Below, one piece after another: positions 57,735 through 62,910 of a stretch of 64,000 nucleotides of DNA; positions within the stretch are counted from its first letter, which is position 1; the number at the start of each line of letters is the position of its first letter. The stretch is taken from assembly GCA_965243165.1 (NCBI GenBank), contig OZ251535.1, positions 1,217,572 to 1,281,571 of the forward strand, written 5' to 3'. Source of the stretch: Candidatus Spongiisociaceae bacterium. Its GTDB lineage: Bacteria; Actinomycetota; Acidimicrobiia; Spongiisociales; Spongiisociaceae. The translations under genes were made by a program, and so were the position numbers. A model generated the notes under the pieces. That model was not told where the DNA came from. It searched no databases and worked only from the letters and a program-made list of their open reading frames with translations.

Positions 57735-59033
57735 ATGAGGCAGCCATTGCGCCTGGAGATGCTGTCCATCCCCGTCGAGGAGCTGCGGCTCGGACAGACC
57801 ACCGGGGTGTCGGGCCGCGCCCTCACCGTCTCGCCCAGGGAGATAGCCGGGCTGGTGCTCGAGGACCCCCGCATCGCCGATGTCAAAGTATCCGCCGCCT
57901 CCCCCGGCGAAGACGTGCGGATCGTCCACTGCCTCGACGCGGTGGAACCCCGCACCAAGCCGGCGGGGGAGGGCGCCGTCTTCCCCGGCTTCCTGGGCGG
58001 CATGGAAACGGCGGGCAGCGGCCGCACCTTCCGTTTGGAAGGCGTGAGCGTGCTGGCCTCGAGCCGCTACCCCCGCCCCTTCTCGGGGCTGCTCCAAGCC
58101 CGAGAGGCGGTGGTGGACATGTCCGGCCCCGCCTCCGTCTACAGCCCCTTCTCACGGGTGAACAACGCGGTGCTGGTCTATTCCCCCGACCCCGGCGTCG
58201 ACAACGAGGACTACGACGACGCCGTCCGCCGGGCCACCCTCCGCGCCGCCCGTTTCATCGCCGAGCGGGCGGTCCGTTCCCTGGCCGAAGACGGCAGCAG
58301 CCTCGCCGCCGCCGTCTTCGACTTCTCCCGCTCCGACCCCGCCCTCCCCAACGTGGTCTACTTCTATCAGCTCCAGGGCCAGGGGCCCATGGCCGACACC
58401 TACCTGTACGGGCGGCCCGTCCACAACCTGGTGCCCACCCTCATCCACCCCAACGAGGTCATGGACGGCGCCGTGGTGAGCGGCGTCCACGTGTACGCCC
58501 TCTACAAGAACCCCACCTACATGCATCAGAACAACCCGGTCATCTGGGAGCTGCGGGCGCGCCACGGACGCACCCTGAACTTCGCCGGGGTGATCATCAA
58601 CCGCGGCCACAACTACACCCAGGAGGACAAGGAGCGCTCCTCCCAATGGGCGGCCAAGCTCGCCCGCATGCTCGACGCCGACGGGGCGGTGCTCACCGCC
58701 GAAGGGGGCGGCAACTCGGCCATCGACCTGATGCTGGCCTGCCGGTACATGGAACAGGCCGGGATAAAGACGGTGGTCCTGTCGGGGGAGGGGCCGGGCG
58801 CCGACGGCTACGGCTTTCCCCTCTTCTACACGGCGCCGGAAGCGGACGCCGTCGTCAGCGTCGGCTCCGAGGACGAAACCGTGTCCATGCCCGAGATGGG
58901 GCGGGTGATCGGCGGCGCCCGGCTGGCCGACGGCGAGACCCCGTCCCGCGGCCCCTTCGACCTGCGGATGTACTACCAATACTGCGCGCTCAGCCAGGTG
59001 GGCGGCAACCTGCTGGCGGGGAAGGCCTTCTGA
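57735..59033 (+). CDS. Glycine/sarcosine/betaine reductase component B alpha/beta-subunit proprotein family (GrdE/GrdG/GrdI-like)
   Basis: 432 aa, in the position and of the size expected for the proprotein partner. Immediately followed (2-nt gap) by the GrdB-like selenoprotein gene. Confidence 0.5.
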   Translation: MRQPLRLEMLSIPVEELRLGQTTGVSGRALTVSPREIAGLVLEDPRIADVKVSAASPGEDVRIVHCLDAVEPRTKPAGEGAVFPGFLGGMETAGSGRTFRLEGVSVLASSRYPRPFSGLLQAREAVVDMSGPASVYSPFSRVNNAVLVYSPDPGVDNEDYDDAVRRATLRAARFIAERAVRSLAEDGSSLAAAVFDFSRSDPALPNVVYFYQLQGQGPMADTYLYGRPVHNLVPTLIHPNEVMDGAVVSGVHVYALYKNPTYMHQNNPVIWELRARHGRTLNFAGVIINRGHNYTQEDKERSSQWAAKLARMLDADGAVLTAEGGGNSAIDLMLACRYMEQAGIKTVVLSGEGPGADGYGFPLFYTAPEADAVVSVGSEDETVSMPEMGRVIGGARLADGETPSRGPFDLRMYYQYCALSQVGGNLLAGKAF

Positions 59034-59034
59034 G

Positions 59035-60375
59035 ATGGCCGAGAAGACCGAAGCGGCCGAGGCGGCCCCCGTCCGCATCGTCCACTACCTCAACCAGTTC
59101 TTCGGCGGGATAGGCGGGGAGGACGAGGCCGGAACCCCCCTGCACACCTATGAGGGGGCGGTCGGTTCGGGGCGGGCCCTGGCGCCCCTGCTCGGCGGCC
59201 GGGCCGAGGTGGTGAGGACGCTGGTGTGCGGCGACAACGCCTTCCACGCCGACCCGGAAGGGAACCTGGAAGCCGCCCTGGACGCCGCAGCCGTTGCCGA
59301 GCCGGACCTGGTGCTGGCCGGACCGGCCTTCGCCGCCGGGCGCTACGGCCTGGCGTGCGGGGCGGTGTGCGCGGCGGTCGGAGACCGGCTGGGGGTTCCG
59401 GCGGTTACAGGCCTCCACCCCGAAGCGCCGGCGGTGGACGTCTACCGCAGCCGGGCGGTCATGGCCGCGACCGCCGGCTCGGCCGCCGGGATGCGCCCCG
59501 CCCTCGAAGCGATGGTGCGGATCGGGCTGCGCCTCGCCCGGGGCGGCGGCCTGCTCCCGGCCGAGGAGGACGGGCGCATCCCCATGGGGTACCGGGCCGG
59601 CCGGCCCGTGAGAACACCGGCGGCGGTCAGGGCGCTCGACATGCTGGCCGCCAAGCTGGACGGGCGGCCCTACCGGAGCGAGGTCGGCCTGCCGCCCCGC
59701 CTCGAGCCGGTTCCCCCCGCTCCGGCCGCGGCCGACCTGTCCTCCGCCTCCGTCGCCCTCGTCACCGAAGGCGGGCTGGTGCCGGAGGGCAACCCCGACC
59801 GGATCCAGTCGTCGGGCGCCACCCGCTGGGCCAGATACCCGGTCTCCATGCTCGAGGGCGGGGAGGTCAGGTTCCGCTCCATCCACGCCGGCTACGACGC
59901 CCAGTGGGTGGACGCCGACCCCAACCGGCTGGCCCCGGTCGACGCCCTGCGCGCCCTGGAAGCGGAAGGCGTCATCGGCGAGCTCCATGAATACGTATAC
60001 GTGACCTGCGGCACCGGCGCCGCCGTCTCCGAAGCCGAACGGATGGGCGGCGAGATGGCCCGCCAACTCACAGCCGACGGCGTTCAGGCGGTGATCGCCA
60101 CCAGCACCTGAGGGACGGGTACGCGTTGCGGGGCAACGCTTTGCAAGATGATCGAACAGCAGGGTATCCCGGCGGTGCTGCTCACCGCCATGACCTCGAT
60201 GGCGCTGGCGGCGGGCGCCAACCGCATCCGCGCCTCGGGCATGATCCCCCATCCGGCGGGCGACCCTTCCCGCGCCCCGGACGAGGAGGCCGCCTGGCGC
60301 CGGTCCCAGGTGCGCAAGGCCCTGGAGGCGGCGGCCGCTACCATAGAAGAGGCCCGGATATTCACCGACTGGTGA
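59035..60375 (+). CDS. grdB: Glycine/sarcosine/betaine reductase selenoprotein B family (GrdB/GrdF/GrdH-like), in-frame TGA (Sec) at 60109-60111
   Basis: N-terminal IVHYLNQFFGG... is typical of protein B. The ORF stops at TGA 60109-60111, but the same frame continues without stops through the ATG at 60148 to 60375 (...ATST-U-GTGTRCG...MIEQQGIPAVLL...). The combined length, about 446 aa, matches GrdB. Confidence 0.7.
60121..60141 (+). promoter_or_regulatory. Putative SECIS-like hairpin downstream of the grdB-like UGA
   Basis: GCGTTGC GGG GCAACGC perfect 7-bp stem beginning 12 nt after TGA. Alternative pairings with the downstream TTGCAAG are possible. Confidence 0.4.
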
Positions 60376-60460
60376 GGCCCGGCGGCGGTGAGCCCGAGGG
60401 CCGGCCTCCCGGAATCCGCCCCCCATCCGACCGCAAACCGACCGGAAGACCGCTTCGCAG

Positions 60461-61903: not shown

Positions 61904-62340
61904 AGACAGCCCCTCGGATCAACGGTTGGGCGGTTTCCGGACTGGCTTTGGGGATGGCTGTCTGGACCGTCGGATGGGGCGTGTTTCTGTCCATCTTCTT
62001 GGAGCAGCCCGCCGTTGCCCTTCTTTTGCAGCTTCTGGCGGCGGCCGGGGTGCTGATGCTGTCCGTCGTCGGCAACCGCCGATCGTTCTCGGTCGACCAG
62101 AAGGGAAAGTACATTTATTCTTATGATAGAGGCAGAACCATATCGCTTATAGGGATGATAATCAACAGCCTGTGTGTGCTGGTAGTCTTGTTCTTGGCGG
62201 TAGGGTACGGAGGATACCCTCGGGGATTTTGCGGGTTTCCTCCGGAAGGGCTGTTGAAGGGGCCGATCTGCGAATTGCTTTGGGAGGCGGACAGCATCTG
62301 GGGTGCTATTATGTTCGGCTTCGGGACGGTTGCCTCCTGA
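61900..62340 (+). CDS. Small hypothetical membrane protein, low-GC insert within the grd cluster
   Basis: 146 aa with three or four hydrophobic segments. Local GC is well below its neighbours. Its start overlaps the previous stop (ATGA). Confidence 0.35.
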   Translation: MKTAPRINGWAVSGLALGMAVWTVGWGVFLSIFLEQPAVALLLQLLAAAGVLMLSVVGNRRSFSVDQKGKYIYSYDRGRTISLIGMIINSLCVLVVLFLAVGYGGYPRGFCGFPPEGLLKGPICELLWEADSIWGAIMFGFGTVAS

Positions 62341-62439
62341 TGATGCGCCGAGGATCGGGGCCGTGTATCATTCCTGGATGCTGTGATCTTCGGCGCAGGG
62401 TCGTAGAAAGCGATGACAATCGAAAGAGAGGAGGTCCGC

Positions 62440-62910
62440 ATGGAGCTGAAAGGCAAACAGGTCGCGGCCATCGGTGAGCGCGAGGGGGTCAACGGGCCCA
62501 GCCTCAAGCTGCTCGCCGAGTCGGCCGGCGCCGACGTGGTGTTCAGCGTTACCCAGTGTTTCGTCTGAACGGCGGGGGGCGCAATGGACCTGGACGACCA
62601 GGCGAACGTCAACCGCCTGGCCGAAGAATCCGGCGCGGACGCAATGGTCGTTCTGCTGGGCCAGCCGGACGCCAACAGCGCCGGTCTCTTCGCGGAGACG
62701 GTAACGAAGGGCGATCCGACCTGGGCGGGTCCATTGGCCGGAGTCCCGTTGGGGCTCCCTGTATATCACATCCTGGAGCCTGAGATCAAGGCCCAGATGG
62801 ACGAAGACCTGTACGAAGAACACGTCGGGCTCATGGAGCTGTCGGCGGACGCGGACGAGATCATCAAATGGGTGGCCTTCTACCGCAAAGGCGGAGAAGA
62901 ATCACCCTGA
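62440..62910 (+). CDS. grdA: Glycine reductase complex selenoprotein A (GrdA), in-frame TGA (Sec) at 62566-62568
   Basis: MELKGKQVAAIGEREGVNGPSLKLLAESAGADVVFSVTQCFV-U-TAGGAMDLDDQ...TVTKGDPTWAGPLAGVPLGLPVYHILEPEIKA... matches the GrdA CFVU Sec motif and C-terminal region. RBS GAGAGGAGG upstream. The two ORF pieces are in the same frame with no intervening stop. Confidence 0.85.
62587..62604 (+). promoter_or_regulatory. Putative SECIS-like hairpin downstream of the grdA UGA
   Basis: GACCTGG ACGA CCAGG(CG) stem-loop about 19 nt after TGA. Confidence 0.35.

Follow-up and report, generated by a model that had tools for sequence, protein, structure and literature searches.

The DNA considered here, called the window throughout, is a stretch of 64,000 nucleotides from a Candidatus Spongiisociaceae bacterium (Actinomycetota, Acidimicrobiia; GenBank assembly GCA_965243165.1, contig OZ251535.1, positions 1,217,572 to 1,281,571 of the forward strand), with a GC content of 69.1%. 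From 55.6 kb to its end, it carries a block of co-directional open reading frames (ORFs) on the + strand, which includes all ORFs related to the grd genes of glycine reductase (Table 1). These genes encode an E-like and a B-like subunit of "protein B", the beta subunit of protein C (GrdC) and protein A (GrdA), and the genes of the B-like protein and of GrdA each contain an in-frame UGA. Compared with 57 related loci, they probably form a selenocysteine (Sec)-dependent reductase operon of the Grd type, which would belong to an uncharacterised branch of the family and be coupled to genes of sugar-type metabolism.

The related loci were taken from species-representative genomes, Joint Genome Institute (JGI) metagenomes and contigs with close homologues, and most of them are contigs of metagenomes or metagenome-assembled genomes (MAGs). 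Up to 10 kb of flanking sequence was searched for each related locus, and the full 64 kb for the window. Protein identities were tested against the equivalog and subfamily cutoffs of NCBIfam and against Pfam, and functions were deduced by comparing sequences. Canonical references came from a plasmid collection and comprised grdG, grdF and grdA of P. acidaminophilum, the full betaine cluster of E. gilvus and the trxB-trxA-grdE-grdA-grdB-grdC-grdD operon of A. noterae.

Table 1. Genes, predicted Sec codons and RNA hairpins of the grd-like block (positions are those of the window; bit scores are given with model cutoffs where available).
Feature	Position	Strand	Remarks
Flavin adenine dinucleotide (FAD)-dependent amine oxidase, sarcosine oxidase / N-methyltryptophan oxidase family (MSOX/MTOX-type)	55584..56750	+	First gene of the block
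EamA (DMT-family) membrane transporter	56762..57727	+	Pfam EamA 107.2 bits; ends 8 nt 5' of the E-like gene
GrdE/GrdG/GrdI-like subunit of protein B, 432 aa	57735..59033	+	PF09338 401.6 bits
GrdB-like selenoprotein B, 446 aa, predicted Sec359	59035..60375	+	TIGR01918 440 bits (cutoff 65.45)
Predicted Sec codon (UGA) of the B-like gene	60109..60111	+	Motif ATST-U-GTG
Predicted SECIS hairpin of the B-like gene	60123..60139	+	7-bp stem GCGUUGC/GCAACGC, loop GGG; 11 nt after UGA
GrdC, protein C beta subunit, KAS-III-like, 480 aa	60461..61903	+	NF040746 569 bits (cutoff 450); DUF5940 and ACP_syn_III domains
Hydrophobic ORF of 146 aa in a low-GC insert	61900..62340	+	No family match
GrdA selenoprotein A, 156 aa from ATG 62440	62440..62910	+	NF040748 197.8 bits (cutoff 130); PF04723 194.6 bits
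Predicted Sec codon (UGA) of grdA	62566..62568	+	Motif QCFV-U-TAGGAMDL (CxxU redox motif)
Candidate SECIS of grdA	62572..62602	+	3-bp helix 62572-62582 and 5-bp hairpin CCUGG-ACGA-CCAGG 62589-62602; hairpin 20 nt after UGA
Zn-dependent alcohol dehydrogenase, cut by the window end	63227..64000	+	Pfam ADH_N and ADH_zinc_N

The grd-like genes

A reading made from the window's letters before any database search (hereafter the sequence-only reading) had named the two interrupted genes grdA and grdB-like, and the family models bear out both names. GrdA and GrdC pass their equivalog models, and the B-like protein passes the subfamily model of selenoprotein B only. Indeed, the latter stays below the specific cutoffs of GrdB (TIGR01917, 397.5 bits for a cutoff of 602.2), GrdF (NF040794, 422.5 for 800) and GrdH (NF040795, 413.4 for 775). 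Similarly, the best specific match of the E-like protein is GrdG, with 317.7 bits for a cutoff of 780, followed by FarE (NF053623) with 134.9 for 675. The models of PrdA and PrdB (TIGR04480 and TIGR04483) reach 32.3 of the required 700 and 84.4 of the required 300 bits, respectively. In direct alignments, the E-like protein is 38% identical to GrdE, 37% to GrdG and 34% to GrdI, and the B-like protein is 42-43% identical to GrdB, GrdF and GrdH, with the Sec at the same position. Sequence searches of the PDB with the E-like, B-like and C proteins gave no match.

The longer GrdA ORF starts at 62413, but the family model aligns only from its residue 12; since a GGAGG ribosome-binding site that is kept in relatives also lies just 5' of ATG 62440, the latter is most likely the true start. 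The gene order had been described as E-like, B, C-like, a small membrane insert and A, rearranged relative to known grd operons. The rearrangement holds, whereas the insert has to be set aside. The 146-aa ORF has no tblastn match in any related locus, its GC content is 54-56% compared with about 72% in the flanks, and a degraded and stop-interrupted trace is seen in locus L001 only. On these grounds (low GC, occurrence in the window only, decay in L001), it was rejected as a component of the system and is probably a lineage-specific element.

Two low-GC stretches (54-60% for about 72% around them) lie on either side of grdA, at 61900-62400 and 62900-63200, and the gap of 316 nt between grdA and the alcohol dehydrogenase gene is itself of low GC. 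The second stretch is the site where L001 carries a gene for a 299-aa HSDR_N-like (restriction-endonuclease-like) protein, and L004 and L006 present inserts of 0.5-1.5 kb in the spaces around grdA. In the sponge-symbiont lineage, insertions seem to be frequent in these intergenic spaces, which look like hot-spots.

Selenocysteine codons and SECIS hairpins

The two UGAs are almost certainly genuine Sec codons, as suggested by their conservation in relatives. The codon homologous to the window TGA is TGA in all B-like genes (28/28) and all grdA genes (22/22) compared, in three phyla and in independent assemblies of different projects, and TGA also occupies the Sec position of three canonical grdA genes. 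In every B-like and grdA homologue the reading frame runs on past this codon, single tblastn high-scoring segment pairs (HSPs) extending through it to the C-terminus. Moreover, the positions match the experimentally established Sec of GrdA and GrdB family proteins. The sequence-only reading had placed the grdA stop at the CFV-U position, with a GrdA-like C-terminus behind it, which the motif and its conservation corroborate; for the B-like gene it was right about an in-frame continuation free of early stops, but 87 and not 88 sense codons precede the final stop. As the ordinary stops of the E, B, C and A genes of the operon are TGA too, the two internal TGAs would be read in a context-specific manner and not through a codon reassignment. 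No tRNA, tRNA-Sec included, and no homologue of SelA, SelB or SelD was found in the 64-kb window or in the flanks of the related loci (up to 10 kb).

Pairs of overlapping HSPs in different frames were encountered in L006 (11458-12761), L018 (11278-12586 and 14082-14544) and L022 (10001-11282 and 12635-14042). Such breaks in the B, A, E or C frames probably reflect assembly errors that shift the frame, and genuine pseudogenes are a less likely cause.

Each UGA is closely followed by a hairpin (Table 1), as had been noticed from the sequence, and both hairpins were considered candidate Sec insertion sequence (SECIS) elements. In the B-like genes, the stem is 99.5% paired over 28 sequences. Of its codons ACG-CGT-TGC-GGN-GCA-ACG, CGT, TGC and both ACG are invariant (28/28) and GCA is found in 26/28, the two exceptions being GCG, which keeps a G-U pair. 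On the contrary, the third base of the loop codon and other four-fold sites vary freely, with third-position entropies of 1.2-1.9 bits. Because CGT and GCA are unexpected synonymous choices at 69% GC, this pattern indicates a constraint at the RNA level. The same core, CGUUGC-GGN-GCAACG, occurs at the same offset 3' of the Sec codon in grdF of P. acidaminophilum, grdB of A. noterae and grdH of E. gilvus, where the Rfam model SECIS_4 (RF01990) scores 46.9-65.3 bits, above its gathering threshold of 38. Folded as a single sequence, the grdB site is no more stable than its shuffles (z = -0.88).

The grdA site behaves differently. Its helices are paired in 96.6% of cells over 22 sequences, with a consensus hairpin CCUGG-ANGA-CCAGG, and one pair covaries (U-A, G-C, C-G) with 10 double changes, a score reached by 0/500 shuffles. 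The single-sequence fold gives z = -2.4. No Rfam model matches the site, and canonical grdA genes of low GC show no obvious counterpart of the 5-bp hairpin. We regard the grdA structure as a candidate SECIS, with evidence that is supportive but weaker than for the grdB-like hairpin.

Relatives and hosts

Homologues of the E-like protein are numerous (667 with an E-value of at most 1e-10). The best 120 of these share 60% or more identity with the window protein, and no named cultured organism is among their sources; where a source name is given among them, it is that of an Acidimicrobiia or Actinobacteria MAG. The nearest genomes are those of an uncultured Acidimicrobiia bacterium and of Candidatus Spongiisociaceae MAGs, which are sponge symbionts, with 74-80% amino-acid identity, and two scaffolds of the European Nucleotide Archive are 92-95% identical at the E protein (92% for L001); an exact-sequence look-up with the window GrdC gave no match. 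Further members of the clade belong to MAGs of other Acidimicrobiia and Actinomycetota, of Anaerolineae, Chloroflexia, Kiloniellaceae and Rhodospirillales. A distant group with 45-50% identity is found in Ardenticatenaceae, Caldilineaceae and Anaerolineae. Judged by these relatives, the window most likely stems from a sponge-associated member of the Acidimicrobiia.

Comparison with known reductases

The window operon shares with glycine reductase of Peptoclostridium (Eubacterium) acidaminophilum and Acetoanaerobium sticklandii the four protein families (PF09338, PF07355/TIGR01918, NF040746 and NF040748), the Sec positions ST-U-G of protein B and CFV-U of protein A, and the core and offset of the grdB SECIS. 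Several features nevertheless set it apart, and in all likelihood it represents a non-canonical subfamily that is independent of a pyruvoyl cofactor and devoid of GrdD. One of these features is the site of the pyruvoyl-forming Cys, SGN-C-VSAC in GrdE and GrdG, which in the window is His255. Among 125 clade members this position (SGV-H/Y/F-VY) is held by Tyr in 88, Phe in 20 and His in 17, and never by Cys. The E-like partner is thus predicted to be unable to make the pyruvoyl cofactor. The canonical UxxCxxC motif of protein B (U-GT-C-TR-C in GrdB, GrdF and GrdH) is also altered, to UxxGxxC (ST-U-GTGTRC), with Gly in 25/28 and Ser in 3/28 sequences.

The subunit set differs as well. Two GrdD sequences used as tblastn queries found no grdD in the window or in the 57 related loci, whereas the same queries retrieved grdD beside grdC in the A. 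noterae operon. TrxB and Trx queries had no match in the window either, and among the related loci one has trxA/trxB, 8 kb upstream; the sequence-only reading had likewise seen neither grdD nor a thioredoxin system in the window. Instead of the order trxB-trxA-grdE-grdA-grdB-grdC-grdD (E-A-B-C-D), the window presents E-B-C-A, and the clade keeps company with alcohol dehydrogenase, kinase or phosphotransferase system (PTS), aldolase and aldehyde dehydrogenase genes. Its hosts are Actinomycetota and Chloroflexota MAGs and not organisms such as P. acidaminophilum or A. sticklandii. Upstream of the A. noterae operon, a below-threshold match to the glycine-GGAnGA riboswitch aptamer was obtained (L032, 5059-5182), with 76 bits for a gathering score of 110; no glycine riboswitch was found in the window with Rfam at gathering or relaxed thresholds.

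Glycine and sarcosine have to form a Schiff base with the pyruvoyl group of GrdE or GrdG, but betaine and fluoroacetate do not. In betaine reductase, GrdI carries an aromatic residue in place of the pyruvoyl Cys, namely Phe, as seen in an alignment with A. noterae GrdE, P. acidaminophilum GrdG and E. gilvus GrdI, and the Tyr, Phe or His of the clade stands at the same place. Since this Cys is replaced as in GrdI, the E-like proteins are not expected to be proproteins or to activate their substrate through a Schiff base. GrdI and FarE indeed lack the processing cysteines and are not proproteins, and FarB lacks the CxxC (PMC10838667). Betaine reductase also relies on GrdA and GrdC. However, GrdH keeps UxxCxxC, and betaine clusters carry a BCCT transporter and grdD, whereas window-type clusters have EamA, ATP-binding cassette (ABC) or PTS transporters and no grdD.

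FarE and FarB of Cloacibacillus porcorum (Synergistota) resemble the window pair in an E subunit without processing cysteines and a B subunit with an altered CxxC, and act on an X-acetate from which X can leave without imine formation (PMC10838667). FarEB borrows GrdA, GrdC and GrdD from the canonical glycine reductase of the same anaerobe, while the window cluster encodes its own C and A but not D, in an entirely different gene context and host. D-proline reductase (PrdA/PrdB) shares a homologous Sec-containing B-type subunit and the reductive cleavage of a C-N bond. It uses a pyruvoyl group and neither GrdA nor GrdC, both of which the window operon encodes; the distant loci described below nonetheless resemble it in having no genes for protein A or protein C nearby.

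Gene neighbourhood

Neighbouring genes were counted in those E-carrying loci that reach a length of 12 kb or more, 26 in all. The B-like gene is present in all 26, an alcohol dehydrogenase in 21, A in 18, C in 17, a DhnA/DeoC-type class-I aldolase in 16 and an FGGY kinase in 17 (either this kinase or a mannose-type PTS in 19). An aldehyde dehydrogenase is found in 10, a flavin reductase in 8 and GrdD in none. In the loci of type 1, found in Acidimicrobiia and others, the order is E, B, C, A, aldehyde dehydrogenase, alcohol dehydrogenase, FGGY kinase, aldolase, flavin reductase, glyoxalase and GntR. Chloroflexia loci, on the other hand, harbor upstream of E, B, C, A and aldehyde dehydrogenase an HPr gene, a GntR/UTRA regulator, a complete mannose-family PTS, two alcohol dehydrogenases, the aldolase and EamA, and downstream an F420 reductase and an F420-dependent LLM oxidoreductase, with no FGGY kinase. 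For example, in L037 (identical to L021; 1814-9984 and 16080-17669) PTS components IIA-IID, closest to galactosamine/GalNAc models, together with HPr, EI and GntR/UTRA, replace the FGGY kinase, and an NpdG-like F420 reductase and the LLM oxidoreductase lie 3' of the aldehyde dehydrogenase.

The distant loci, called type 2, show E, a flavin amine oxidase and B, with a NitT/TauT-type ABC transporter, FGGY kinase, alcohol dehydrogenase and aldolase, and neither grdC nor grdA was found within their 10-kb flanks. The amine oxidase (PF01593, 89.8 bits) sits between E and B in L025, L027, L028 (11382-12716), L029, L054, L057 and L058. The transporter of these loci includes an NMT1-like binding protein, and some of them have genes that by eye resemble Ldh_2 and HpcH types.

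Gene order and the side on which neighbours lie thus differ between the Acidimicrobiia, the Chloroflexia and the distant Anaerolineae group. Because the gene set is kept while order, side and phosphorylating device change, the association speaks for functional coupling and not for inherited synteny, and we consider it rather likely that the grd-like genes work together with the sugar-type genes. The relatives of the latter in the PDB and NCBIfam are generic: xylulo- and glycerol kinases for the kinase, MJ0400, class-I fructose-bisphosphate (FBP) aldolase and LsrF for the aldolase, and galactitol-1-phosphate or threonine dehydrogenases for the alcohol dehydrogenase. The best models are xylulokinase for the kinase, the enzyme called ADH synthase, archaeal class-I FBP aldolase and LsrF for the aldolase, and betaine-aldehyde dehydrogenase (454 and 435 bits) and aminobutyraldehyde dehydrogenase for the aldehyde dehydrogenase, all below equivalog cutoffs.

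In the window lineage, the block begins with the amine oxidase (Pfam DAO 163.7 bits; NCBIfam N-methyl-L-tryptophan oxidase 400.6 bits for a cutoff of 257), which was found in 2/26 long loci, namely the window and L001. The EamA gene adjoins E in 10/26 long loci and is also among the gene calls of L001, L003 and L037. The alcohol dehydrogenase of the window is 69% identical to that of L003, and L001 continues downstream of grdA with an alcohol dehydrogenase and then FGGY and DeoC-type genes.

A second EamA paralogue (52199-53173, + strand, Pfam 111 bits) lies 3.6 kb upstream of the EamA gene of the operon, and its DNA region is similar to that of the latter in a single comparison made with an out-of-frame query. 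L001 and L004 likewise have two EamA genes upstream of E.

Proposed function

In the established Grd chemistry (Andreesen and co-workers), protein B uses its Sec to attack the substrate at the alpha-carbon, the amine leaves, and the resulting carboxymethyl selenoether is passed to the Sec of GrdA. The neighbouring Cys of GrdA then cleaves the selenoether reductively, which yields an acetyl thioester and a Se-S bond that thioredoxin reduces again, and from the thioester protein C (GrdC/GrdD) makes acetyl phosphate. This chemistry is partly restated in recent papers (PMC13188914; PMC10838667).

With no pyruvoyl site, no GrdD and a linkage to sugar breakdown, the window enzyme probably acts on a substrate other than glycine. 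Judged from gene content, the reductase probably removes a carboxymethyl unit from a sugar-like nitrogen compound, or acts downstream of such a compound. A phosphorylatable sugar- or polyol-like molecule with a nitrogen or other onium-type substituent (X) would be taken up through EamA, an ABC transporter or a PTS. Alcohol dehydrogenase, kinase or PTS and aldolase would then split it into triose phosphate and an X-substituted aldehyde, which aldehyde dehydrogenase would oxidise to X-CH2-COO-, the substrate of the reductase. The selenolate of protein B would attack the alpha-carbon and expel X directly, without a pyruvoyl Schiff base, as in GrdHI and FarEB. Such a direct displacement, without an enzyme-borne carbonyl, would be expected because the clade uniformly lacks the pyruvoyl site. 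Possible leaving groups are a nitrogen that is quaternary or activated in some other way, a different group of onium or halide type, and a nitrogen that the substrate itself already holds within an iminium or enaminone.

The carboxymethyl group would next be transferred to the Sec of GrdA and reduced to the acetyl thioester, the Se-S bond being re-reduced by thioredoxin or by the flavin or F420 reductase of the cluster. GrdC would take over the acetyl group, which in the absence of GrdD might be hydrolysed, transferred to coenzyme A or released as acetyl phosphate. Both this fate of the acetyl group and the electron supply from flavin or F420 are speculation. The reverse order, in which the reductase acts first on the intact conjugate, is equally compatible with the gene content.

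Candidate substrates include 2-amino-2-deoxy-aldonates, Amadori compounds, strombine-type opines, mycosporine-glycine, methylthio-, sulfo- or arseno-acetates and betaine lipids, but any particular one of them has a small chance of being the right one. A bolder proposal, which is possible but doubtful, would make the clade a widespread and hitherto unrecognised Grd-type class without pyruvoyl and GrdD that performs the terminal C-N (or C-X) cleavage in a new catabolism of sugar conjugates. Its hosts would be non-fermentative members of the Actinomycetota, Chloroflexota and Alphaproteobacteria, sponge symbionts among them. Under that proposal, the candidates would be an N-carboxymethyl compound of glycated or opine-like type, or a glycine adduct of the mycosporine type whose own iminium would serve as electron sink, a role that pyruvoyl plays in glycine reductase.

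Objections and alternative explanations

A number of observations weigh against a Sec-dependent operon coupled to sugar-type genes, or limit what can be drawn from it. Before its sequence ends, the window shows only the alcohol dehydrogenase of the triad formed with FGGY kinase and class-I aldolase, and the triad is missing near E-B-C-A in the sponge-symbiont loci L005, L038 and L015. Aldehyde dehydrogenase is absent from the window lineage, which has the MSOX-type oxidase instead. Alcohol dehydrogenase, kinase and aldolase match generic families only, all of them below equivalog cutoffs, and the pathway order and the nature of X come from gene content only. GrdA and GrdC pass the same equivalogs as those of glycine, sarcosine and betaine reductases, so that glycine betaine, dimethylglycine or another known compound may still be the substrate. 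Other parts of the genome may carry the genes for GrdD, thioredoxin and the Sec machinery.

The hairpin of the B-like gene is open to objection too. It presents no covariation among the 28 sequences, because its stem never varies, and SECIS_4 matches the window at 60112-60148 with 19 bits (E = 2.6), below the gathering score of 38; Rfam at gathering thresholds gave no match in the window, and the site appeared in a relaxed search only. Nevertheless, core stem-loop and offset are identical to the canonical ones and only the flanks differ, so that a sub-threshold score with the same core and offset points to a divergent member of SECIS_4 with an intact core. Of the earlier suggestion that both hairpins are SECIS candidates, the shared grdB/F/H core and the pairing of grdA are in favor, while the Rfam score of the window is not.

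Other explanations of the locus were considered. A betaine-type reductase, which would act on glycine betaine or dimethylglycine and release tri- or dimethylamine as GrdHI does, is the least unlikely of them, although still unlikely. It would account for an E-like protein devoid of the pyruvoyl Cys exactly as GrdI, for the preference of the nearby aldehyde dehydrogenase for betaine-aldehyde dehydrogenase models, for the MSOX/N-methyl-amino-acid oxidase of the window operon and for the BKACE, GCV_T and 3HCDH genes (carnitine/betaine catabolism) near two related loci. The sugar-type neighbours would then serve other ends, or would only supply an aldehyde precursor in a route from alcohol to aldehyde to betaine through alcohol and aldehyde dehydrogenases. 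The B-like protein does score 413 bits on the GrdH model, but this is far below 775 and no better than the 422 bits on GrdF, and the E-like protein is distant from GrdI. Unlike the clusters of E. gilvus and P. acidaminophilum, the locus has no BCCT/OpuD-type transporter; GrdD is missing, and the linkage to kinase or PTS and class-I aldolase over three phyla, despite rearrangement, would be left unexplained. Less probable still is a FarEB-like reductase for an X-acetate without nitrogen (halo-, methylthio-, sulfo- or arseno-), made from a 5-X-5-deoxy sugar as in the dihydroxyacetone phosphate (DHAP) shunt or fluoroacetate biosynthesis. Kinase and aldolase produce DHAP and X-acetaldehyde in the salvage of 5-X-5-deoxyribose, and the neighbours of the clade, with their aldehyde dehydrogenase, would follow this logic. 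Both hallmarks of FarEB (an E subunit without the pyruvoyl cysteines, a B subunit with a degenerate CxxC) are shared, FarE is the second-best NCBIfam match of the E-like protein, and the NitT/TauT-type transporters of the distant group belong to a sulfonate/taurine family. Yet the FarE score of 135 bits is remote from the cutoff of 675, and the kinase and aldolase are of the FGGY and class-I types and not the MtnK/MtnA/class-II set of the DHAP shunt, with no isomerase. Moreover, the amine oxidases, the aminoaldehyde-type aldehyde dehydrogenase and the galactosamine-like PTS point to a nitrogen compound.

A plain glycine or sarcosine reductase of the Stickland type, which would simply have diverged at high GC and have its GrdD and thioredoxin encoded elsewhere, is very improbable, even though none of the four Grd families is missing, GrdA and GrdC exceed their equivalog cutoffs and the SECIS core is identical to that of canonical grdB. 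The Cys needed for the Schiff base with glycine or sarcosine is absent in 125/125 clade members, the scores on GrdB (397 for 602) and GrdG (318 for 780) fall short, no glycine riboswitch, grdD or grdX/trx was found nearby, and the hosts are MAGs of Acidimicrobiia, Chloroflexota and Alphaproteobacteria, which are not amino-acid fermenters; a canonical reductase was thus rejected on model scores and on the missing Cys. Finally, the TGAs might be sequencing errors or marks of pseudogenes and the hairpins incidental GC-rich structures, for which one could invoke the grdB fold, no better than shuffles, and the frameshift-like breaks of the long-read MAG relatives L006, L018 and L022. The probability of such an artefact is negligible, as the comparative data refute it: the TGAs recur without exception in assemblies made independently by different projects and covering several phyla, the protein encoded past the TGA is conserved, the stem allows hardly any synonymous change and the position is that of the established Sec of the GrdA/GrdB family. 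The sequence-only reading had named errors at the TGAs as one thing that would overturn the Sec codons, and this possibility fails against the relatives.

Other features of the window

Several other features lie elsewhere in the window. A 909-aa DNA adenine methylase (46138-48867, - strand) matches HmaB of PADLOC over its full length with 855 bits; HmaB is part of the Hma helicase-methylase-ATPase defence system, and a 245-aa ORF nearby (44813-45547) has no PADLOC match. The regions 8928-18436 and 19681-21291 look like a defence or repair island. They contain a large methyltransferase-like protein with weak MTase_II/mad2 matches, neighbours that by eye are NurA/HerA-like (one weak mad8 match) and then SbcD-like, an 841-aa SMC/SbcC-like ATPase (LmuB 89 bits, mad3 81 bits) and, on the opposite strand, a Type II/III methyltransferase (188 bits).

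A tandem repeat of 108 bp (54617-54914, 2.8 copies, 96% identity) lies inside a - strand ORF (54485-55033), whose 182-aa product thereby contains repeats of 36 aa (…AIEKQNAAIEKQNATIEKQGAEFTAALKELGAEVRI…), ends in a hydrophobic C-terminal tail and belongs to no convincing family. On the + strand, the translation of a very long ORF of about 2460 codons (29739-37121) contains, as seen by eye, two near-identical halves of about 1100 aa, each with glycosyltransferase-like segments, and …VIPFYEAPEALALTLAALAGQTYPRRLFEVIAVDDGSKTP… occurs twice in it; a glycosyltransferase of several domains may thus have been duplicated internally in tandem. Further along (37445-39589, +) lies a gene for a 715-aa secreted protein that combines a SpoIID domain with C-terminal S-layer homology (SLH) repeats and an acidic Glu/Pro-rich linker; SpoIID together with SLH is unusual for an Acidimicrobiia-like genome.

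Significance

Reductases of the Grd type are classic selenoenzymes, typical of strict anaerobes that ferment amino acids, and their only known substrates are glycine, sarcosine, betaine, D-proline and, as a recent addition, fluoroacetate. The systems for these substrates are also the only ones listed in the NCBIfam library and in recent reviews of selenoproteomes, and a full-text search of the literature retrieved no paper that links Grd genes with Acidimicrobiia, Chloroflexota, sponge symbionts or the neighbourhood described here. While the parts and the chemistry are of the known Grd type, there is novelty in the status of the cofactor, the set of subunits, the genomic coupling and the hosts, and very probably in the substrate.

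The clade counts hundreds of members in three phyla that are not known for Stickland metabolism. Current annotation is wrong, as the genes are either split at the UGA or called "beta-aspartyl peptidase" or "glycine reductase", and the use of selenoproteins is therefore under-counted in these lineages. The near-invariant grdB hairpin offers a simple marker for finding such genes, and the cluster provides a concrete set of eight or nine genes. Since the clade lacks both the cofactor site and a core subunit and is tied to kinase and aldolase genes, it points to a new class of substrates, and to a new role for selenium in bacteria of sponges, seawater, soil and groundwater.

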